From an uncultured Candidatus Saccharibacteria bacterium (lineage in GTDB: Bacteria > Patescibacteriota > Minisyncoccia > Minisyncoccales > GWA2-38-27), in the NCBI GenBank assembly GCA_964387825.1, contig CAYLWZ010000002.1, forward strand, positions 47,375 to 111,374: 64,000 nt of DNA. Direction: 5' to 3'. Under the pieces are notes generated by a model, which searched no databases, had not been told where the DNA came from, and worked only from the letters and a program-made list of their open reading frames with translations. Within the stretch, counting starts at the first letter, position 1. The number at the start of each line of letters is the position of its first letter. Below, piece after piece: positions 3,785 to 48,787 of the stretch. The translations under genes and the position numbers were made by a program.

Positions 3785-3888
3785 AGCTCTTATAACTTAC
3801 GACTTACAACTTATAACTTATAACTTACAACTTATAACTTATAACTTACGACTTGGGTTACAGGTTACACGTTTTAAGTTTCAAGAAA

Positions 3889-4593: not shown

Positions 4594-4727
4594 CCTTATA
4601 ACTTATAACTTATAACTTATAACTTGGAACTTGGAACTTGGATTAGGGTTTTAAGTTATAAGTTATAAGTTATAAGTTTTAGGTTATAAGTTTTAGGTTA
4701 TAAGTTTTAGGTTTCAAGTTTTAGGTT
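4594..4727. repeat. rpsN-rplE spacer: (ttataac)n, (ttggaac)n versus (aagttat / aagtttt)n inverted arms
   Basis: read directly from the sequence. Confidence 0.7.
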
Positions 4728-5359: not shown

Positions 5360-5665
5360 TTATATCTCTTGTCCGCATTTTTTGCAAATACGATATTTTT
5401 TCTTTCCTTCCTTTTTATAACCTATGCGGGTTGGCTTCTCGCACTTCGGACAAATAAGTTTCACGTCAGAAACATCAAAAGACCCGGGTACTTCTACAAT
5501 CTGACCCTTTTCGCCAGATTTCTTCGGTTTAACATGTTTCTTCCTCAAATTAATTCCTTCAACCATAATCCTGTTTCTCTTAGGAAAAACTGTTATAACT
5601 TTGGCTTTTCTGCCTTTGTCTTTCCCGGAAATCACAAGAACCTGGTCGTCTTTTCTAATTTTCAT
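5360..5665 (-). CDS. rplX: 50S ribosomal protein L24 with C-terminal zinc-ribbon extension
   Basis: MKIRKDDQVLVISGKDKGRKAKVI KOW motif of uL24 plus C-terminal CPKC…CKKC. Confidence 0.8.
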   Translation of the reverse strand: MKIRKDDQVLVISGKDKGRKAKVITVFPKRNRIMVEGINLRKKHVKPKKSGEKGQIVEVPGSFDVSDVKLICPKCEKPTRIGYKKEGKKKYRICKKCGQEI

Positions 5666-5747
5666 TATATCGATGCTAATATACGAATTATACCAATAAA
5701 ACTAATAAATTATTCGTAAATTCGTAATGAATTCGCATATTAGTTGA

Positions 5748-21636: not shown

Positions 21637-21667
21637 AATAATATGAATAATAATACAAACTAGTTTT

Positions 21668-21875
21668 AGAGCGCGGGATTCAAACCAGAATCAATTTAGC
21701 TCCGTCCGTAGGGAAACGAAATAATGGGTCAATTTCTTCGTCACTCCTCCTCAAGGTATTAATTCTTAATACCTCTTCGTCGTTCTATACCCGTCCGGGA
21801 CGGACTAGGATCGTTCCTCGAACTTAACCCATTCTTTCGTTTCTAAACTTGGTTCTGGTTTGAATCCCACGCTCT
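21668..21875. mobile_element. MITE-like element copy 1 (208 bp) with terminal inverted repeats agagcgcgggattcaaaccagaa … ttctggtttgaatcccacgctct
   Basis: terminal inverted repeats plus internal nested inverted repeats; internal 100 bp is the exact reverse complement of part of 27983-28283. Confidence 0.8.
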
Positions 21876-27181: not shown

Positions 27182-27658
27182 TCATTTCTTTCTTCTTTTT
27201 TTTAATTGGTGGATACAAACACCGCCTTGTATCCTTTTGCTCATATTACAGTTAAAACACATAACTTGCAATCTTAAATTTTTTGGATAATTATTAACCT
27301 TTAGCCATTTTAAAAATGAAGTTCCGATTCCATGTTTCTTCCGCTGTTTATTTCCATTGTTATCGATATGGTCTAAACATAAAAAATCTATTTCTGTTTC
27401 CCCGCAACAAACACATTTTGGTTTCTTGCTCCCATATGATTGCAATGCTTTAATTTTTAGTCCTTTCCTATACCTTTTACTCTCTTCAATTACCTTTTCT
27501 TTATTCTTTTTCTTCCATAATCTACTTCTTTCTTTAAATTTCTCTGAACTCTCTAAATAATATTGGTGAGCTTTTTTATTAGCACATTCTTTACATATAC
27601 GGAACTTAACAAGAGTACCATCTCTATTTTTAGTTGTTCCGCATAAATAACATTTCAT
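27182..27658 (-). CDS. HNH endonuclease with N-terminal zinc ribbon
   Basis: CYLCG…CKEC ribbon; CVCCGE…LCLDHIDNNGNK…N…CFNCN HNH motif. Confidence 0.7.
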   Translation of the reverse strand: MKCYLCGTTKNRDGTLVKFRICKECANKKAHQYYLESSEKFKERSRLWKKKNKEKVIEESKRYRKGLKIKALQSYGSKKPKCVCCGETEIDFLCLDHIDNNGNKQRKKHGIGTSFLKWLKVNNYPKNLRLQVMCFNCNMSKRIQGGVCIHQLKKRRKK

Positions 27659-27982
27659 ACATGTTTCAATTTTGCTTTTTTATAAACATTAGAAAAAAAT
27701 TAAAATAAAAAACCGATTATTTAACCGGTTTTAGTATATCATGGAACAAAACGGCTTGTCAATGTATTACTTATTTAAAGCACAACAGCAAAAACAACAA
27801 GATAAAAAAAGCGAGACCCATCCTCGTTGCGAGGCTAGGTCTCGCAGAAACCTCCTTACCACCATCTACTATTTCTTTATACTGCAAGCTTCGTTTAAAT
27901 CTTTAAGAATATTTGCAATATCGATGCCGTAGAGTTTGCAAATATCTCCGATTTTTAAGCTCTCCATTTCCATTTTGGCTAA

Positions 27983-28283
27983 AGAGCGTGGGATTCGAAC
28001 CAGAACCAAATTTAGAAACGAAAGAATGGGTTAAGTTCGAGGAACGACCCTAGTCCGTCCCGGACGGGTATAGGACGACGAAGAGGTATTAAGAATTAAT
28101 ACCTTGAGGAGGAGTGACGAAGAAATTAGCCCATTCTTTCGCTTCCCTTTAGGCGGGTGAATTTTATCCACCTTCTTCGTTGCTCGTCGCTAATGTATCC
28201 TGCGGATACATTACGCTCCTCGCGCCTTGAATCTGAATAAAATTCGCTCCGCTAAATTGATTCTGGTTCGAATCCCACGCTCT
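27983..28283. mobile_element. MITE-like element copy 2 (301 bp), inverted relative to copy 1, with extra 115-bp internal segment
   Basis: terminal inverted repeats agagcgtgggattcgaaccagaa … ttctggttcgaatcccacgctct; internal gtattaagaattaatacc and cctagtccgtcccggacggg hairpins shared with copy 1. Confidence 0.85.
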
Positions 28284-28387
28284 AAAGGGCAACCAAGACA
28301 AGGCAATTTATATTTTTCCAATATTTTGTCTGCCCTGGGATATTCCAAAATTTTAGCCAAAGTTGTGTTTTTTGTAATCTGAACCAT
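28211..28387 (-). pseudogene. DUF1858-like small redox protein (CxGCP motif) truncated by MITE insertion
   Basis: first 35 codons MVQITKNTTLAKILEYPRADKILEKYKLPCLGCPL match the DUF1858 N-terminus; codon 36 onward is encoded by the MITE terminal repeat. Confidence 0.55.
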
Positions 28388-28388
28388 A

Positions 28389-29147
28389 TTAGGAAGCCAG
28401 CCAGCCGCCGTCAACAACCATTGTGTGCCCGGTAATATATTCGCTTTCGTCTGAAGCCAAAAAAGCGGCCGCATTGGCGATATCCTCGGGTTTGCCTATT
28501 CTTCCATAGGGCACCTTTGCCAAAAGACCTGCTTTTACGTTCTCATCTGCCAGTAATGGCTCTGTCATCGCTGTTTTTATCACGCCGGGAGCAATGGCAT
28601 TAACATTAATTCTGTGCTTCCCGAGGTCTAAAGCAAGCTCTTTGGTTAAGTTAATAATCCCTCCTTTGGTCGCGCAATAAACACTGGACATATCAAAGCC
28701 GACGAATCCGGCAATGCTTGCGATACTAATAATCTTTCCGTATTTCTGGGATTTCATCTCCGGTATGACATACTTTGAACAAAGAATAACGCCTTTTAAG
28801 TTCACATTGAGTATCTTCTCTATTTCTGAGGTCTCCATCTGGTCTAATTCTTTTTGAATAAAAATCCCGGCGTTGTTCACCAAAATATCTATCCTGCCGA
28901 ATTTATCTTTTGTTGTCTTCACCATTCCTTTGATATCTTCTTCATTAGTCACGTCTAATTTTAAAGCTAATCCTTCACTTCCTTTTTCTTCAACCTTTTC
29001 TACCACCGCCTCGCAATCTTCTTTGTTAATGTCGGTAACAACAACTTTGGCGCCGCTTTCGGCTAACTTTAAAGCAATCGCTTCTCCAATTCCCCCCCCT
29101 GCTCCGGTTACTACGGCAATTTTACCAGTTAAATCGTATTTATTCAT
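28389..29147 (-). CDS. SDR-family oxidoreductase (FabG-like)
   Basis: TGAGGGIGEAIA Rossmann motif, NNAG, S…YxxxK catalytic pattern (YCATKGG). Confidence 0.8.
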   Translation of the reverse strand: MNKYDLTGKIAVVTGAGGGIGEAIALKLAESGAKVVVTDINKEDCEAVVEKVEEKGSEGLALKLDVTNEEDIKGMVKTTKDKFGRIDILVNNAGIFIQKELDQMETSEIEKILNVNLKGVILCSKYVIPEMKSQKYGKIISIASIAGFVGFDMSSVYCATKGGIINLTKELALDLGKHRINVNAIAPGVIKTAMTEPLLADENVKAGLLAKVPYGRIGKPEDIANAAAFLASDESEYITGHTMVVDGGWLAS

Positions 29148-29214
29148 AATTTAATTTGTTTAATTTATTTTTTGCCGATCCTATTTTAAATATTCGAAAT
29201 TCAAAATTTGGCTA

Positions 29215-29350
29215 TTCATATCTCAAAGCATCAACCGGATTCATCTTAGCGGCGCCTCTGGCAGGCAGACCCGCCTGTATCGTTATGCGAAGCATTGCGG
29301 GCAGGTATCCGGAAATACAGCCTATCAAGAACGAGAAAACCAGACCAAAT
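29215..29350 (-). pseudogene. degenerate duplicate of the 3' end of the MacB-type permease gene (cf. 30406-30470), interrupted by one GC-rich 36-bp element
   Basis: translation …CISGYLPA[MLRITIQAGLPA]RGAAKMNPVDALRYE* versus permease C-terminus …VGCVSGYLPARSAAKFNPAEALRYE*. Confidence 0.75.
29271..29305. repeat. GC-rich 36-bp 'PARNA' element, single copy
   Basis: ccgcctgtatcgttatgcgaagcattgcgggcagg; same family as 36187-36258, 36517-36588 and 47586-47624. Confidence 0.8.
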
Positions 29351-29986
29351 TTACAGGCTTAAACTAAATTTTACTAATTCTTTTTTTATAATTTTTTCGT
29401 CAATCTTAAACCTCTTTTTATAAATAATTTTTTCTGAATAATCAATATCTTTAAAATAAACAAGCTGGCTACGGAACATTTTTTCATTGAATTCATCTCC
29501 AAAAATCTCTCTTGCTTTTTTCGCTATTTTCCCCAAAGAATAATAATTCTTCATGATAAAATATAAATCAACATAGTCCTTCCATTTGGGTCTTCTACCC
29601 AGAACGTAAGCCTTCATCGCCGATAATGTCAGTAAATTCGGCAATTTTATAAAATTATCAAATTTTTCGGAAAAATTAATTTTGAACGGAAAATTAAAAA
29701 AAGTAAATCCTACGCTATTTATTAATAAAGTAAATTGTCCTTCTTCGTCGCGAATTACGCGCTCAATTTTTTTTAATCCTGTTATTTTTTCGCGAATATA
29801 ATAATTATTGAATTCTTTGTTTGTAAATAAATCAAAATCAATTGACTCCCGGTGACCGATATAAAGCGCAATCGCGGTCCCACCAACCAAACCAAAATTT
29901 TTCTTAAATAATTCAATTAAAGGCAATAATTCAATCTGTTCTTTAGTTAAAATTTCTTTATGCATACTGTTTGAAATATAGATCAA
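29351..29986 (-). CDS. nucleotidyltransferase, AbiEii/AbiGii-type toxin family
   Basis: GGTAIALYIGHRESIDFDLF motif characteristic of the AbiEii nucleotidyltransferase fold. Confidence 0.65.
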   Translation of the reverse strand: MIYISNSMHKEILTKEQIELLPLIELFKKNFGLVGGTAIALYIGHRESIDFDLFTNKEFNNYYIREKITGLKKIERVIRDEEGQFTLLINSVGFTFFNFPFKINFSEKFDNFIKLPNLLTLSAMKAYVLGRRPKWKDYVDLYFIMKNYYSLGKIAKKAREIFGDEFNEKMFRSQLVYFKDIDYSEKIIYKKRFKIDEKIIKKELVKFSLSL

Positions 29987-30224
29987 AATAATTTTTTATC
30001 TTATTATCATAATTAATTCTTTTACGATTTGTCTGTTTTTCAAAAATCCGCGCCATTTTTTTTATCCCCATAATCGCGATGAGTTTTTGCACATCATCCC
30101 AATCGCCATAATTCAAAGTGTGCTCCATAATTGATTCATCGGAGAGTTGTTTTACGTCTTTTACATACCATATTAAATACGGCCTCTTTTTTATAAAATT
30201 TTTAATTTTTTGCCTGTTTTTCAT
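29958..30224 (-). CDS. small partner protein of AbiEii-like gene (putative antitoxin)
   Basis: 88-aa ORF overlapping the toxin start by 29 bp (translational coupling); lacks a recognisable full AbiEi HTH. Confidence 0.4.
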   Translation of the reverse strand: MKNRQKIKNFIKKRPYLIWYVKDVKQLSDESIMEHTLNYGDWDDVQKLIAIMGIKKMARIFEKQTNRKRINYDNKIKNYFDLYFKQYA

Positions 30225-30319
30225 TTATTACGCATTAGGTTTATTGTATTTTAATTATAGCATATTTTGTATATTTTGTTCCAAAAATAAAATCCGGCCC
30301 TTCGGCGGATTCTAAAATT

Positions 30320-30374
30320 TAAGTGAAAAGTCGGAAACGTCCCTACTTTTCACTTTTCTACTTTTCTACTTTTC
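30320..30374. repeat. hairpin (aagtgaaaagt / acttttcactt) plus 3x tandem acttttc[tc] at island-permease junction
   Basis: read directly from the sequence. Confidence 0.6.
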
Positions 30375-30405
30375 CTTTTAAAAACAAAAGATGCTTGAGA
30401 ATAAC

Positions 30406-31680
30406 TCATTCATATCTCAAGGCCTCGGCCGGATTAAATTTGGCGGCGCTTCTGGCAGGCAGATATCCGGAGACACAACCGACTAAAAATGAGAAAGTCA
30501 GGCCAAAAAGAATAAGCTGGGGAGTAATTGACGCTTCTAAGAAAAAAATGGGATGTATTTGAAAATAAATTTCCACTGCCTTAGCCAATCCCAGTCCTAA
30601 AATTGTTCCTCCTATTCCTCCAAACAAGCCAAAGATGCCTGATTCAACCAAAAAAATCGCGACAATGCTTCTATTTCTCGCGCCAACCGCTTTCATAATT
30701 CCAATTTCCCGAATTCTCTCCCGTACTGAAGTATACATCGTATTCATTATCCCTATCCCCCCAACCACAATGGCTATTGAGGCGAAACCAATCACTATTA
30801 ATTGCACTAAGCCCATTATGCTTCCCACTATGTCGCCCATTTTTTCGCTGCTAAGTACGGCGTAAGACGGAAGGTCTCCTTCCCCTCTTCTCCTTTTTCT
30901 GCTTTCTTCAAGTTTTTCTTTTATATTTTCTGTTACCTCATCCGCTGAATATCCGGATTCAATCTTAGCCATAACAACTTTAGCCCCTGTCCGCTCTCCT
31001 GTAATCTGGCGGAAAATATCTAAATCCAGATAAACCTGGGAATCGTCTTGCTTGCTTCCCAGAGATTTTAATATTCCTGTAACTTCAAAATTCCTGCCTC
31101 TGAGATTAATCTGAGCGCCTATTCTCATTCCTCGAAAAATTTCTTCAGGGACCAAACTTCCAATACAAATTTCCCTCTTCCCGGAAACAGGCCAGCGTCC
31201 CTGTTTCAAGTCCCACCCCATATCAGATTTCAAGACCTTTAATGTTTCTTCCCAAGGAACTCCTGTAACTAAAACTGTTTTCTTTTCGCCTGCATATCTG
31301 ATTGCTTCTCCTCTGTATGTCATGGGAACGACAACGCTTACTCCTTCTGTTTTTTTTATTGCCTCAATATCGTCTTCAGACAACTCCATTCCACCGGCCA
31401 TAGCTGTTGTTATGTCGGTAATATCTCCAGGCATAACAATAATTATATCTTTTCCCATCATTCTCAGCTGCTGCAAAACCGCTTTCTCTATGCCCTGGCT
31501 CAAAGAAAGCAATGACATAATCAAAAAAATACCGATAACAACGCCTATCATAGTCAACCAGCTCCTAATTTGCCTTGTCCTCAAATTTCTTATGGCGATT
31601 TTAATATATTCCTTAAACATTAGATTTAAGTTGTAAGTTGAAAGATTAAAAATATCAACCGATTTCCTTAAATTTAGCAA
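30406..31680 (-). CDS. ABC transporter permease, MacB/FtsX-like
   Basis: N-terminal TM, large periplasmic domain, C-terminal FtsX-type 3-TM bundle; adjacent ABC ATPase and adaptor. Confidence 0.8.
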   Translation of the reverse strand: MLNLRKSVDIFNLSTYNLNLMFKEYIKIAIRNLRTRQIRSWLTMIGVVIGIFLIMSLLSLSQGIEKAVLQQLRMMGKDIIIVMPGDITDITTAMAGGMELSEDDIEAIKKTEGVSVVVPMTYRGEAIRYAGEKKTVLVTGVPWEETLKVLKSDMGWDLKQGRWPVSGKREICIGSLVPEEIFRGMRIGAQINLRGRNFEVTGILKSLGSKQDDSQVYLDLDIFRQITGERTGAKVVMAKIESGYSADEVTENIKEKLEESRKRRRGEGDLPSYAVLSSEKMGDIVGSIMGLVQLIVIGFASIAIVVGGIGIMNTMYTSVRERIREIGIMKAVGARNRSIVAIFLVESGIFGLFGGIGGTILGLGLAKAVEIYFQIHPIFFLEASITPQLILFGLTFSFLVGCVSGYLPARSAAKFNPAEALRYE

Positions 31681-31702
31681 CTCTAATCTTTGGTCTTTAA
31701 TC

Positions 31703-32419
31703 TTATTTCTCCCATAGAATCTTTTCTGCCTGAAAATGGTTATGGATTATTTGTCCATCCTTAATATGAACTACTTGCTTGCTATAACCGGCTATATTCG
31801 GGTCATGAGTAACAACAATAATCGTCTTTTTTTCTTTTTTATGAAGATCGGTCAAAATCTCCATAATTAATTTTCCGGTGGTAGAATCCAAATTACCTGT
31901 CGGCTCGTCAGCAACGATAATTTCCGGGTCATTAGCCAAAGCCCGGGCAATTGCTATTCTTTGTTTTTCTCCTCCGGAAAGTTCGCCCGGCCTATGATGA
32001 ATCCTGTTCTCCAGATTTACAGAGGCAAGAAGTTTTTTTGCTCTTTCTCTTCTTTTTGTATCTTTAGCTCCTTGAAAAATCATAGGAAGCATCACATTTT
32101 CTAAGGCGTTAAGGTTAGGCAGCAAATTAAACTGCTGGAAAACAAAACCTATCTTTCTGCCTCTAATTAAAGCCAGCTGATTTTCGGAAAGGCGAGAAAT
32201 GTCCTTGCCTCCTAAGAAAATTTTTCCTTTAGTCGGTACGTCCAAGCAGCCAACAATATACATAAGAGTTGACTTGCCGGAACCAGACGCCCCCATTATA
32301 GCCACAAAAGATCCGGATAGAATTTCTAAGTTTATCCCTTTCAGAACAGTAAGTTCTAATTTCCCTAATTGATAAGTTTTCCAAATATCCTCAAGTTTTA
32401 TTATAGGAAGATTATCCAT
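31703..32419 (-). CDS. ABC transporter ATP-binding protein (MacB/LolD-type)
   Basis: GASGSGKST Walker A, LSGGEKQR signature, [11 protein letters not shown] Walker B. Confidence 0.85.
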
Positions 32420-32496: not shown

Positions 32497-34005
32497 TTAT
32501 AATACTTTTTCTCCTTCTTCAAGGCCGGAAGTAATCTCAACAAAGTCTTCGCCTTCCAGCCCTGTTTCTATTTCCCGGGGTTTGACTTCGCCATTTTCAT
32601 AAACTCGGACTATTTTTTGCCCGCTCGTCTTTTCTATCAATTCCTTAGGAACGCGCAAAACATTATCTTTTTCAGCGGTTTTTATAATAATGTCGGCCGT
32701 CATACCGGGCTTGATGCCTTCTTTTATTTTCAGAAAATCAATAATCACCTTATAATAAACTACTCCTTCAATTAATTTTTCTGCGGGGTCAATTGAAATG
32801 ACTTTTCCCTCAAAGGCTTGGCCGGGGAAAGGAGTTAAATCAATATTTACCGGATCTCCAATTTTTATTTTAACAATATCTTCCTCGTAAATATTAACTT
32901 CTACTTGAAAAGGAGCAGCCGGAAGAAAAGAAATCACAGAATCGGCCGGTTGAGCCATTTCTCCTTCCCTTTTATTAATATCTGTTATTTGGCCATTTTC
33001 AGGAGCTTTCAAAACTGCTTGGGTAATCTTATTTTCTAAAAGTTTAATTTTGGCCTCGCCTTGCTTTATCTGCGCCCGATATAATCCTTCTCCTTGCAAT
33101 TTATTCTCAAGAGAAGAAATTTCAGCTTGAGCATTATTGATATTCGTTTTATTGGTAATCTTGACCGTTGAAATGTCTTGTTGGGCGTTAACAATATCGG
33201 CAGTAACGTTATTTATATTCGTTCTCTGGGTATCTAAAGACGTCTTATCAGCGCTTGAAACAAGAGCGCGATAAGCTTCACTTTTTGTATCGTCTCGAAT
33301 TACTTCCAAAGAATTGCTTACTGCCTCTAATTGCTCCTTTACTTTAAGAAGAACTGAATCAATATTTTCTTCTTGGGAATTATTTTTAGCGTCGTTAACA
33401 TAGGTTTTAATTCTTTCCAAATCACTTTTGATATTATATTTTTCATTTACCACTTCCGTTGATTTTTCATCAAAAGAAGTAAAATAATCGCGCTGGATTT
33501 TATAAACCACATTATAAGCGTTATATGTTTTTAAGTAAGAATCATCTAAAACAGTAAGAGCGTCGTCATAAGCGTTATCCATGTCTTCGTCCGCTTTAGA
33601 TTTAGCGTCTTCCAAGCTCTGTTCCGCATTTTGGAGAGAAACATCGGCATCCGTATTCTTTGCTTTTGCAACTTCTGAATCGGCTTTTGCTTCATCTAAC
33701 TCAATGTAAAGCTGAGTTGTGTCAAGTTTGGCCAAGAATTGTCCTGTTTCCACATTATCGCCGATATTAACATACATTTCTTTAATTCTTCCTGAATTCT
33801 TAAAACTGAGGTCTCTTTTTTCCGAAACCTTAACCGAACCTGTTTCGGAAACCTCCTGAGTAATCGCGCCCCTGACTACTTTTTGGAAAACAAAATTTGG
33901 CTCTTTGTTCTTAAATAAAAACCAATAAACGCCAAAACTCAAAAGAGCCGTGATTATAATGATGACTGAAATTATTTTTTTGCTCTTCCCGTTAAAAATT
34001 TTCAT
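32497..34005 (-). CDS. efflux periplasmic adaptor (HlyD/MacA-like membrane fusion protein) with long coiled coil
   Basis: N-terminal TM anchor, extended coiled-coil middle, C-terminal beta-barrel motifs. Confidence 0.7.
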   Translation of the reverse strand: MKIFNGKSKKIISVIIIITALLSFGVYWFLFKNKEPNFVFQKVVRGAITQEVSETGSVKVSEKRDLSFKNSGRIKEMYVNIGDNVETGQFLAKLDTTQLYIELDEAKADSEVAKAKNTDADVSLQNAEQSLEDAKSKADEDMDNAYDDALTVLDDSYLKTYNAYNVVYKIQRDYFTSFDEKSTEVVNEKYNIKSDLERIKTYVNDAKNNSQEENIDSVLLKVKEQLEAVSNSLEVIRDDTKSEAYRALVSSADKTSLDTQRTNINNVTADIVNAQQDISTVKITNKTNINNAQAEISSLENKLQGEGLYRAQIKQGEAKIKLLENKITQAVLKAPENGQITDINKREGEMAQPADSVISFLPAAPFQVEVNIYEEDIVKIKIGDPVNIDLTPFPGQAFEGKVISIDPAEKLIEGVVYYKVIIDFLKIKEGIKPGMTADIIIKTAEKDNVLRVPKELIEKTSGQKIVRVYENGEVKPREIETGLEGEDFVEITSGLEEGEKVL

Positions 34006-36147: not shown

Positions 36148-36737
36148 TTTATTTTAAATAAAAGCCATTGTTTTCCCCGGCCTTTCCCGCCTGCAACGCT
36201 TTGCGTAGCATTGCGGGCAGGCCCGCCTGCAACGCTTTGCGTAGCATTGCGGGCAGGCATTTTAACTAAGCAATAATTTCCTTTTAATTTTTTACCTTTT
36301 AATCCAAAAATAATCTTATCCTTTGTTTTCTCAACTAATTCGTATTTTCCTTTGTCATAAATCTTGACAATGCCTGCTCCATAATTTCCTTTGGGTATTT
36401 TTCCTTCAAAATTAATATAGCCGATTGGGTGGTCTTCAGTTTGAATCGCCAGATGTTTCACTCCCTTCTTTCCCGGCACTCCTTTCGGCACCGCCCAAGA
36501 TTTTAAAACTCCATCCCCGCCTGCATCGCTATGCGAAGCATTGCGGGCAGGCCCGCCTGCATCGCTATGCGAAGCATTGCGGGCAGGCATTTCTAACCTG
36601 AAATCAAAATGATGCCCCGCTTTCTCAGCAAAATGTTCTTGAACCACAAACCTATTTTCTGAAGTTCTCAAAACCTTACCTTTTGGCTCGGGAGTTTTAT
36701 CAAACTTTCTTTTCTCCCAATATTTTTTTAAGCTCAT
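36144..36737 (-). CDS. LigD-type 3'-phosphoesterase (PE) domain protein carrying two in-frame 2x12-aa repeat insertions
   Basis: KRKFDKTPEP…FVVQEHFAEKAGHHFDFRLE…DGVLKSWAVPKGVP…EDHP…FEG…G matches the LigD PE domain; inserts PARNASHSDAGG x2 and PARNATQSVAGG x2. Confidence 0.65.
   Translation of the reverse strand: MSLKKYWEKRKFDKTPEPKGKVLRTSENRFVVQEHFAEKAGHHFDFRLEMPARNASHSDAGGPARNASHSDAGGDGVLKSWAVPKGVPGKKGVKHLAIQTEDHPIGYINFEGKIPKGNYGAGIVKIYDKGKYELVEKTKDKIIFGLKGKKLKGNYCLVKMPARNATQSVAGGPARNATQSVAGGKGRGKQWLLFKIK
36187..36258. repeat. 2x tandem GC-rich 36-bp element (ccgcctgcaacgctttgcgtagcattgcgggcaggc), in-frame in LigD-PE gene
   Basis: perfect tandem; ~60% GC in a ~33% GC genome; encodes PARNATQSVAGG x2. 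Confidence 0.9.
36517..36588. repeat. 2x tandem GC-rich 36-bp element variant (ccgcctgcatcgctatgcgaagcattgcgggcaggc), in-frame in LigD-PE gene
   Basis: perfect tandem; encodes PARNASHSDAGG x2. Confidence 0.9.
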
Positions 36738-47068: not shown

Positions 47069-48787
47069 TTAGGTCAATTTCTCTTCAATCTCTTCCGGTA
47101 AGAAAGGTCTAGCGTTGTATTTTAATATTTTCTTATCAACTTTAATACCGTAACAATTTAAGACCTTTTCCATTTGTCCCAAGCCGTTTGTTTCTATTAA
47201 GACAAGTTTTTTAACTCCTTTTAACGCGTTTTTCATCTGTTTTTCCGGAAATGGTTCAATAATAATCGGCTGGACCATTCTCATCCCTAACTTCTCCGCC
47301 ACCTCTTTTGCTGGTCCTTTCGTTGAACCCCAAACAATAAGCGCTTTTTTAGCTGTTTTCTTCCCGTAAACCTTAACCGCTTCTAATCTATCAACCTCTT
47401 TTCTCATTTCCTCAAATTTTCTTAGCCGCTTATTTTGCATTTCTTCTACCTTTTTTCCTTCTTCCACTGTAATTCCGAACTCGTCATGTTCATAACTGTT
47501 TGCTTTGACAATTGCATTTTTCTCCCCCGGAAAAGCAAGAGGAGAAATTCCATTTCTTGTTTTTTTGTATCTCAAATATTCACCCCCGCCTGCATTGGCT
47601 ATACCAAAGGCATTGCGGGCAGGCTTTTTGTTCCAAAGCAAAGGTTCTTCACGTTTAATTTTCTCTAAAATATTTTTATTAAAACTAAAGGTACTTTCGG
47701 AAACTTCCTTATCAAGTAATAAAATTGACGGTGTTTGGTACTTCCAAGAAAGATTTAAAATTTCTCCGGCCCAATAACAAGCCTCGTCAGCATCGCCGGG
47801 AGCGATAACAAACCTTACAATATCGCCATGCCCGGCTCCTAAAACAAAAAGTAAATCTCCCTGGCCAGTATAAGTAGGTACTCCGCTAGCAGGAGACATT
47901 CTTTGGCTTTCTACTATTACCAAAGGAGTTTCATTCTGGGCAGCCAAACTAAACCCTTCTACCATTAAAGCAAATCCTCCTCCCGAAGTTCCAACTATTG
48001 TCCTTGCTCCGGCATATGACGCCCCGATAGCCGCGTTCACCACCCCTGTCTCGTTTTCCAGTTGGGCAACGGCTATATTAAAATCTTTTTTGCGCTTGGC
48101 TAAATAATGCAAAATCCCGCTGGCCGGGGTCATCGGATAAGCAATGTAAAGATCTAAACCAGCTTTAACAGCGCCCAAAGCAACCGCTTCGTTCCCGGTT
48201 AAAAGAAGAAACTGCTTTTTCCCGCTTTTGTTCCCGCTAAAACGGACATTTAGCGGGACAATTTTAAATAAATTAGGGCTATCTTCAAAAGCGGCTTTCG
48301 CTACTTTTATATTTATTTCTTGAAATTTTTTAAATTCTTTTTTTAAAACCTCTTCTAATGTTTTCCAGTCAAAACCGATAATTTTTGCAAAAGCGGAAAC
48401 AAGAGCGATGTTCTCCATTATCGGCTTGCCGCCCACCTTTTCAACGATTGTTTTTATCGCCACCCCAATTCCTTTTCTTTTTCTAAAAGAAATCTCATCG
48501 CTATTGTAAATAATTATTCCTTTTTTGTCTAAATCGCTTTCGTGTTTTTTGATGGTGATTGCGTCCAGGGCTAAAAGAAAATCTATTTTTTCCCGATGAG
48601 ATAAAACTTCTTTTTCCGACGCCCTAATTTGAGAAAAATCATGGCCCCCTCTAATCAAGGATTGATAATCATCGTAAATAAAAATTCTATAACCAATCTG
48701 GGAAAATAATTTGGCAATTATAAGACCGGCTTTCTTGGAACCGCGGCCGGCGGCGCCTCCTATTAAAATTGAATAATCCTTAGCCAT
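47069..48787 (-). CDS. porGA: 2-oxoacid:ferredoxin oxidoreductase fused gamma-alpha subunit
   Basis: N-terminal gamma-like MAKDYSILIGGAAGRGSKKAG… then alpha-subunit domains; carries one PARNA element (47586-47624). Confidence 0.75.
   Translation of the reverse strand: MAKDYSILIGGAAGRGSKKAGLIIAKLFSQIGYRIFIYDDYQSLIRGGHDFSQIRASEKEVLSHREKIDFLLALDAITIKKHESDLDKKGIIIYNSDEISFRKRKGIGVAIKTIVEKVGGKPIMENIALVSAFAKIIGFDWKTLEEVLKKEFKKFQEINIKVAKAAFEDSPNLFKIVPLNVRFSGNKSGKKQFLLLTGNEAVALGAVKAGLDLYIAYPMTPASGILHYLAKRKKDFNIAVAQLENETGVVNAAIGASYAGARTIVGTSGGGFALMVEGFSLAAQNETPLVIVESQRMSPASGVPTYTGQGDLLFVLGAGHGDIVRFVIAPGDADEACYWAGEILNLSWKYQTPSILLLDKEVSESTFSFNKNILEKIKREEPLLWNKKPARNAFGIANAGGGEYLRYKKTRNGISPLAFPGEKNAIVKANSYEHDEFGITVEEGKKVEEMQNKRLRKFEEMRKEVDRLEAVKVYGKKTAKKALIVWGSTKGPAKEVAEKLGMRMVQPIIIEPFPEKQMKNALKGVKKLVLIETNGLGQMEKVLNCYGIKVDKKILKYNARPFLPEEIEEKLT
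47586..47624. repeat. GC-rich PARNA element, in-frame in POR alpha (encodes PARNAFGIANAGGG)
   Basis: ccgcctgcattggctataccaaaggcattgcgggcaggc shares both end motifs with the 36-bp family. Confidence 0.7.

Follow-up and report, generated by a model that had tools for sequence, protein, structure and literature searches.

Among the closest described systems, the AbiE (AbiEi/AbiEii) modules are type IV toxin-antitoxin (TA) or abortive-infection systems, and the mycobacterial MenAT modules carry MenT nucleotidyltransferase (NTase) toxins; AbiEii and MenT nucleotidylate the acceptor ends of tRNAs. The cognate AbiEi, a protein of about 200 to 300 amino acids with a winged helix-turn-helix N-terminal domain and a C-terminal domain, is encoded immediately upstream. 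Two known modes of DNA acquisition also serve for comparison, namely integrative elements that enter the 3' ends of tRNA or protein genes and bring a replacement gene end in their attachment site (attP), and homology-facilitated illegitimate recombination during natural transformation, known from Acinetobacter baylyi and Streptococcus pneumoniae. Here, we describe a pair of genes, for an AbiEii-family NTase and a small partner, in a 64,000-nucleotide (nt) stretch of contig CAYLWZ010000002.1 from an uncultured Candidatus Saccharibacteria bacterium (hereafter the window). The pair lies between the working 3' end of a macB-like ABC permease gene and a second, orphaned copy of that end. We consider that there is about an even chance that the pair was imported by recombination together with a foreign macB tail, with the resident tail left stranded. 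As a trace of horizontal gene transfer, the locus is instructive, although scars of this type are fairly ordinary.

All genes of the locus are on the minus strand. The permease gene in use (Pfam MacB_PCD and FtsX domains) spans positions 30406 to 31680; its open reading frame (ORF) opens with TTG at 31680, and an ATG at 31620 is the likelier start, giving the 404-amino-acid protein found in the gene calls of two same-species contigs (L087 and L088; L numbers denote the loci used for comparison). Downstream follow a leader of 181 nt between the macB stop and the partner gene (30225 to 30405), the 88-amino-acid partner gene (29958 to 30224), a presumed antitoxin, and the gene for the 204-amino-acid NTase (PF08843; 29351 to 29965), a presumed toxin. 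The orphaned macB tail occupies 29212 to 29349 (34 codons plus a TAG stop at 29212 to 29214) and holds a 36-nt hairpin element at 29270 to 29305. A resident spacer of 64 nt (29148 to 29211) leads from the orphan stop to the gene for an SDR-family oxidoreductase (28389 to 29147), which was assigned by Pfam and is, by synteny, the ancestral neighbor downstream of macB.

The recurrence of the macB 3' end downstream of the pair, from which the original prediction started, is borne out by alignment. One block pairs 29214 to 29269 with 30408 to 30463 (56 nt, 84% identical; E = 1.9e-7 by blastn-short, searched within the flanks), and a second pairs 29297 to 29349 with 30455 to 30507 (53 nt, 75% identical), a similarity that is non-random. 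The NTase and its small partner do sit between the two copies, as was claimed. The repeat is longer than the approximately 65 bp first given: in the functional gene it takes in about 102 nt (30406 to 30507), namely codons 392 to 424 and a TGA stop, and the two tails are 76% identical overall. Similarity begins right behind the NTase stop and ends at both macB stop codons. The functional gene ends in …AAKFNPAEALRYE and a stop, its tail translating as …FGLTFSFLVGCVSGYLPARSAAKFNPAEALRYE, and the distal copy translates in frame as FGLVFSFLIGCISGYLPA-MLRITIQAGLPA-RGAAKMNPVDALRYE up to its own TAG stop, where MLRITIQAGLPA is the bracketed insert part; minus the 36-nt element, the DNA of the orphaned tail contains …GGTCTGGTTTTCTCGTTCTTGATAGGCTGTATTTCCGGATATCTGCCTGCCAGAGGC…. 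The C-terminal ends read …KFNPAEALRYE in the functional copy and …KMNPVDALRYE in the orphaned one. A block of 21 nt, TCCGGATATCTGCCTGCCAGA, is identical in both tails, and the arms on either side of it have diverged. This block encodes the best-conserved motif of the tail, SGYLPAR, and is only borderline unusual.

The proposed insertion also holds up against related genomes, in which empty sites were found. In four syntenic relatives (L007, L171, L172, and L173), the macB stop is followed by the SDR start after 44 to 77 nt, with no cassette and no second tail. The gene order in L171, L172/L173, and L007 is HlyD-ATPase-macB-SDR-DUF1858 (with Rrf2 as well in L171), the same as in the window, and the nearest homologs of the SDR protein are located in these same loci. 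Here, 1258 nt separate the macB stop from the SDR start. As macB is directly followed by the SDR gene in the four relatives, the 1.26 kb between the two genes is an insertion, and the distance from the orphan stop to the SDR start, 64 nt, is within the range of the empty sites. No relatives with macB identity between 85% and 100% were found in the three collections searched. One might suspect an assembly chimera that mis-joined the macB ends of two strains, given that the sequence is metagenome derived and that the repeat involves a conserved gene end. However, four same-species contigs from four other samples and two assembly sources, JGI and Logan (L087 to L090), carry the identical arrangement from macB through the SDR gene, at 99.8 to 99.9% identity. 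The structure is therefore not an assembly artifact, and we regard the chimera as barely credible.

The original prediction held that the distal copy had decayed after the event. It is instead a canonical macB tail, intact except for the 36-nt insert. The comparison was made over 33 codons (99 nt), with the insert, the junction codon, and the stop codon removed; the tails differ at 20 of the 99 nt and at 7 of the 33 amino acids, and all seven replacements are conservative. Over the full 105 nt, the differences are distributed over codon positions 1, 2, and 3 as 6, 4, and 15. Scored against a profile of 117 homologous tails, the orphan reaches 118.8 and the functional tail 106.5. Every orphan residue that differs from the functional tail (junction codon aside) occurs in the homologs, and the functional tail holds states that are rare among them (F25 in none, V13 in 3, and A28 in 4 of the 117). 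In simulation, a neutral distal copy would show so few replacements without a stop codon with P = 0.034, and random substitution starting from the functional tail reached the score of the orphan with P <= 2e-4. Given the third-position bias, the profile scores, and the simulations of decay, the two tails are not duplicates that drifted apart in situ but alleles, each of which acquired its differences as the end of a functioning gene. The orphan lost its function only a short time ago.

The same results count against an insertion that duplicated a target site of about 100 nt, after which the identical tails diverged in place and the distal one decayed. In favor of such a process, a related cassette on contig L081 is flanked by a perfect 62-nt repeat that looks fresh, and both insertions are at the extreme 3' end of a transporter gene. 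On the other hand, if the copy under selection had gained the synonymous divergence that this process requires, the neutral copy should have decayed massively, and the distal copy has no premature stop codon, has only residues seen in homologs, and outscores the copy in use. Duplication in place followed by decay is rejected by the codon-position pattern, the simulation, and the profile score, and we consider it very improbable.

We infer that the distal tail is the original end of the resident macB gene, recently cut off. In blastn comparisons, window positions 29267 to 28399 align in one high-scoring segment pair with positions 3868 to 4749 of L171 (macB tail, spacer, and SDR gene; 78%), and positions 29349 to 29306 align with L171 3822 to 3865, leaving the 36-nt element as the sole interruption. 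L172 and L007 align colinearly with the orphan tail, spacer, and SDR gene just as L171 does. The functional tail is followed by 181 nt that match nothing in the relatives. It is this colinearity with the spacer and SDR gene of the relatives, together with a better fit to the family profile than that of the tail in use, that points to the orphan as the resident end. Similarity to the relatives does not settle which tail is native, as identities among all tails range from 63 to 83%, and where the two tails disagree the relatives match each of them about equally often (127 versus 124 matches).

The distal tail could also be read as the remnant of a tandem permease paralog that was mostly deleted when the TA pair arrived. 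Pairs of MacB/FtsX genes do exist in more distant, mostly archaeal loci (such as L046 and L052 to L078), but in the distant pairs it is on the upstream side of the matched gene that the additional one is found, and close relatives (macB at least 55% identical) have a single permease, L046 excepted. Moreover, macB leads directly to the SDR gene in the four syntenic relatives, and it is with their only macB tail and spacer that the distal tail is colinear. The paralog is rejected on these grounds, that is, the single permease of close relatives and the adjacency of macB and the SDR gene in four of them, and its probability is in our view slight, a little below even that of the duplicated target.

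In the recombinational import that we favor, the donor would be another Nealsonbacteria-like lineage in which the TA pair already lay just downstream of macB. The incoming DNA (macB tail, leader, and TA pair) would have been anchored by homology in macB on one side; on the other, the end of the NTase gene would have been fused, without homology, directly to resident codon 392. Two routes could give this outcome, homology-facilitated illegitimate recombination and a single crossover of the Campbell type, in which a circularized copy recombines through the conserved tail; no element-encoded integrase would be involved. The incoming tail would then complete macB, the resident tail would be displaced and orphaned, and the 36-nt hairpin element would have been inserted later into the orphaned tail. 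The locus resembles the known cases of homology-facilitated illegitimate recombination in that foreign DNA lies beside a conserved gene able to anchor one side, that the non-homologous junction, right after the NTase stop, is abrupt, and that the anchor gene, macB, is left as a mosaic. It differs in that the anchor gene continues past the junction, with the consequence that a resident piece is kept as an apparent duplication and not deleted.

The mosaic structure of macB is evident from a comparison with its neighbors. The HlyD-like adaptor (32497 to 34005) is closest to its homologs in L171 and L172 (59 to 60% amino acid identity, versus 49% for L091 and L001), the ABC ATPase (31703 to 32419) to those in L171, L172, and L007 (81 to 82%, versus 73% for L091 and L001), and the SDR protein to those in L171, L172, and L007 (77 to 80%; absent from L091 and L001). 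The macB product, in contrast, is closest to those of L091 and L001 (85%), and L171, L172, and L007 reach 64 to 73%. The identity of the macB body minus that of the ATPase is -0.07 for the window versus L007 and L171 and +0.09 versus L091; it ranges from 0 to +0.06 in pairs that involve neither the window nor L172. About the first 40 and the last 40 codons of macB resemble the "backbone" represented by L007, L171, and L172, and the region from approximately 31500 to 30532 resembles L091. Informative sites are backbone-type rather than L091-type by 105 to 39 in the ATPase gene and by 12 to 5 in the first 100 nt of macB; the L091 type prevails from approximately 31500 to 30532, and from 30531 to the stop the backbone type is again in the majority (18 versus 5). 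The switch from L091-type to backbone-type sequence near 30531 is about 24 nt before the repeat boundary, and identity to L091, which is 0.86 in the next-to-last bin of 35 codons, is only 0.69 in the tail (0.80 and 0.37, respectively, at third positions). These lineages thus exchange macB alleles, and the crossovers fall within the conserved ends of the gene. In L172, too, the macB body disagrees with the flanking genes, and such exchange of permease alleles may be frequent.

The upstream side of macB is also unusual. A gap of 82 nt (31621 to 31702) separates the ATPase gene from the macB ATG, and in the relatives the two genes overlap or are at most about 20 nt apart. An imperfect inverted repeat (31622 to 31648 and 31684 to 31710) is located at this gap, which may be the left-hand scar of recombination. 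A foreign remnant of an ATPase tail was sought in the gap, where similarity to the 3' end of the L091 ATPase gene was not significant (p = 0.3).

Outside this locus, relatives of the pair (65 to 83% amino acid identity) occur in about ten other contexts. In L081 the pair follows a pilin-like gene, in L084/L085 it precedes an aminotransferase gene, and in L086 it separates nitroreductase-like and TPR genes; further neighbors include radical-SAM genes (from L175 on) and S20 (from L185 on). DNA homology among the cassettes is confined to the stretch from the partner ATG to the NTase stop (30224 to 29358 here), and none of these contexts includes a macB tail. The cassette is a discrete two-gene unit found in many unrelated surroundings. 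Tandem pairs also occur: L084 carries two DUF6922-AbiEii-type pairs at 704 to 2781, one with a canonical DUF6922 partner (E = 1.4e-21), and the two NTases are only 35% identical to each other.

Flanking repeats were found around one of the other cassettes, that of L081, and around none of the rest (about ten contexts, L084 to L086 and L175 to L206). The L081 cassette, whose NTase is 80% identical to the one described here, lies between perfect 62-nt direct repeats (4607 to 4668 and 5631 to 5692) that derive from a convergently oriented P-type ATPase gene, of which they represent the 3' end. In the displaced copy, the original stop is retained after …AAAAMAFSSVSVILNALTMKYREI (…MKYREI), and the functional copy ends in …MKYHNN, its last codons having come from the inserted DNA. 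Two short contigs with an L081-type cassette end inside the repeat, as a repeat-bounded unit would. There are thus two independent cases of gene-end repeats beside the cassette, the macB tail here and the P-type ATPase tail in L081.

These observations bear on the mechanism put forward in the original prediction, site-specific integration into a gene terminus with regeneration of the target. In this scheme, the cassette would have carried a macB tail as its attachment site, a recombinase would have acted in trans, the gene would have been regenerated, and the original tail would have been displaced. Such an origin would account for an insert relative to empty sites that is bracketed by direct repeats of a gene end, and for a 21-nt identical block between diverged arms, as in attL and attR. 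On the right, the insert ends immediately at the NTase stop here and no more than 9 nt from it in L081, and contig L082 (1054 nt) begins and ends with an identical 30-nt sequence, compatible with a circle. As in the elements that integrate at the 3' ends of genes, a gene end is present twice as a direct repeat, the gene is intact, and the displaced end is distal. In contrast to these elements, the insert is only 1.16 kb long and contains the TA genes alone. The search for an integrase or recombinase nearby was negative: Pfam scanning of 49 proteins from across the 64 kb of the window returned no integrase, recombinase, or transposase, all being housekeeping or unknown proteins. Furthermore, members of the cassette family do not share a single attachment sequence. 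As the other cassettes occupy unrelated sites that lack the macB tail, and share nothing outside the two genes, a fixed attP with a macB tail does not appear to be a property of the family. The L081 repeat derives from a different gene whose C terminus was changed (…YREI to …YHNN) and not regenerated, the terminal overlap of L082 is an assembler k-1 overlap expected from any flanking repeat, and the 21-nt block encodes the top-conserved SGYLPAR motif. For these reasons, we consider site-specific integration unlikely, while giving it more weight than the other alternatives to import.

Several points weigh against the recombinational import that we prefer. The L091-like tract ends approximately 24 nt before the repeat, and the functional tail is backbone-like at 18 of 23 informative sites; replacement of the macB body and arrival of the cassette may therefore have been separate events. 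Position and colinearity are the sole basis for naming the native tail, and with 105 nt to compare neither tail is clearly closer to the nearest relatives. The similarity of the spacer taken by itself is weak (p about 0.02), and short AT-rich matches are frequent. A donor locus combining macB with the functional tail, the leader, and the cassette was not found. The 21-nt identical block between diverged arms also resembles the core of an attachment site, the perfect repeat of L081 could reflect an insertion mechanism that duplicates its target, and about ten other cassette contexts are without flanking repeats.

A broader generalization is that the DUF6922-AbiEii pair is a self-contained, integrase-less mobile cassette of Patescibacteria that lodges in, or travels with, the 3' ends of conserved membrane-transporter genes and leaves direct repeats of 60 to 105 nt. 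We hold this to be doubtful. If it were true, an addiction function could drive the fixation of a linked foreign allele of a neighboring gene. The locus is of wider interest as a concrete and datable example of accessory-gene gain in the tiny genomes of Patescibacteria, one in which a TA module would have arrived linked to a foreign allele of a conserved neighbor, with the displaced gene end as the scar of the event. A systematic search for orphaned tails of this kind could reveal where recombination has moved genes among uncultivated lineages.

Assignment of the NTase to the AbiEii family is supported by Pfam (PF08843, 44.9 bits versus a cut-off of 22.5; E = 1.7e-11) and by PADLOC (AbiEii, E = 4.2e-5). 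As in AbiE and MenAT, it keeps the polymerase beta-type motifs GG[ST]…SxDxD and K…RxxWKDYxD, and the corresponding residues (G28-G29-T30…S41-D43-D45 and K118…R125-W128-K129-D130-Y131-D133) are invariant among 21 homologs of 65 to 83% identity. It differs in being shorter than the Pfam model, of which it covers positions 11 to 191 of 238; nearly all of its 6642 database homologs are about 203 to 210 amino acids long. A sequence search against the PDB returned nothing significant, and no relatives were found among viral contigs. The gene forms with its small upstream partner a two-gene operon with overlapping stop and start, a further likeness to AbiE and MenAT. The likely start of the NTase gene is the ATG at 29965, which gives 204 amino acids and an overlap of 8 nt (29958 to 29965), in agreement with public and L087 gene calls; the 29-bp overlap reported earlier applies to an upstream TTG start only.

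The partner departs from the AbiE pattern. It has no AbiEi or COG5340 match in Pfam, NCBIfam, or PADLOC, and its sole Pfam signal is a weak one to DUF6922 (PF21956; E = 0.013, 15.4 bits, below the cut-off of 27). Its 74%-identical homolog in L081 matches DUF6922 with E = 8e-4, and 27 of 61 members of the partner family do so, the best with E = 2.6e-9; the family comprises 331 representative clusters at 50% identity. An AlphaFold2 model built with an alignment is an all-helical, six-helix bundle (predicted local distance difference test score, 96.3), and Foldseek found no match for it in the PDB. The 88-amino-acid partner is thus probably a divergent DUF6922-family protein; it is not AbiEi. DUF6922 was not mentioned in the literature searched. 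From family membership only, the NTase would be a growth-arresting toxin that the helical partner neutralizes, and the pair would be an addiction or abortive-infection module that stabilizes the acquired segment. In this phylum, the partner of the most common AbiEii-type toxins is an uncharacterized DUF6922 helical protein and not AbiEi.

The leader between macB and the pair contains, in order along the minus strand, a tandem repeat, a hairpin, a terminator-like hairpin, a T-run, and a promoter-like motif. The hairpin (arms at 30321 to 30334 and 30342 to 30355) and the 8-nt repeats exist as described earlier, with 4.1 copies of the repeat (30343 to 30374, by Tandem Repeats Finder) rather than three. 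The role as a recombination site then suggested for them finds no support: they lie 50 to 85 nt downstream of the stop and outside the repeated segment, are unique to this species, adjoin the terminator-like hairpin and its T-run, and show no link to recombination. That second hairpin (30291 to 30311, followed by the T-run at 30281 to 30290) was read from the sequence of the minus strand, as was an extended -10 promoter-like motif of the TGnTATAAT type, TGCTATAAT, at 30254 to 30262, 30 nt upstream of the partner ATG; a consensus scanner called neither a terminator in the leader nor the TGCTATAAT promoter. The leader RNA folds at -41.4 kcal/mol (z = -3.7). Most simply, the two hairpins are predicted to terminate the macB operon before the cassette promoter. 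The promoter region resembles the leader of L081, in which a similar motif is present. Apart from this region, comparison of the leader and spacer with 1.7 Mb of related loci gave AT-rich noise only, and Rfam returned nothing at E <= 1 for positions 27600 to 30450.

The 36-nt insert in the orphaned tail is a real repeated element; the name "PARNA" given to it came from a translation in another frame. It interrupts the orphan in frame at GGATA^TCTGCC, within the 21-nt block that is otherwise identical in both tails, and its insertion site adjoins sequence resembling the element's own 5' end. Two G>A changes in this copy weaken the hairpin from -19 to -12.2 kcal/mol. Four more 36-nt copies form two tandem pairs (36186 to 36257 and 36516 to 36587) inside a LigD_N phosphoesterase gene, where they read as PARNASHSDAGG twice and PARNATQSVAGG twice, and a 39-nt variant at 47585 to 47623 is read as PARNAFGIANAGG inside a POR gene. 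Elsewhere, a copy lies in frame, in a different reading frame, within a Pur_DNA_glyco gene (L094 5520 to 5555), others are at L034 9532 to 9567 and L118 8975 to 9010, and two intergenic copies of 35 nt are found in L035 (2502 to 2536 and 10818 to 10852). Changes in the variants are paired, so that the stem is preserved. The element has no match in Rfam, and no description of it was found in the literature searched. A comparison can be drawn with the Rickettsia palindromic elements, short selfish palindromes of roughly 100 to 150 nt that are inserted in frame in protein genes. Like these, the 36-nt element is GC-rich, forms a hairpin, and resides inside intact genes (LigD_N, POR, and Pur_DNA_glyco); its coding copies are multiples of 3 nt in length, and it has intergenic copies too. 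It differs in being shorter (35 to 39 nt), in often forming tandem pairs, and in its occurrence in Patescibacteria.

A second short repeat family, also found inside coding genes, is a structured element of approximately 310 nt at about 27975 to 28300 of the window, with a second copy at 21665 to 21875 (RNA fold z = -7 to -9). In addition to the in-frame 36-nt hairpin, the window thus holds an element that splits a gene: the longer repeat divides the DUF1858 gene exactly between …PCLGCPL and AKMEMESLK…, whereas L171 has an uninterrupted copy of that gene. The repeat is bounded by terminal inverted repeats of about 30 nt, in which GGTTCGAATCC, a sequence like a tRNA T-arm, is present. Rfam gave no match; relatives of the repeat occur in L003 (5053 to 5251), L096/L097 (1229 to 1427), and L124 (1425 to 1576), and it could be a miniature inverted-repeat transposable element or an intron-like element. 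Positions 27182 to 27658 hold a Cys-rich ORF of 158 amino acids with an HNH-like motif (…CLDHIDNNGN…), which Pfam did not assign to any family with a useful E-value; at the syntenic position in L171 there is an ORF of similar length, 157 amino acids.

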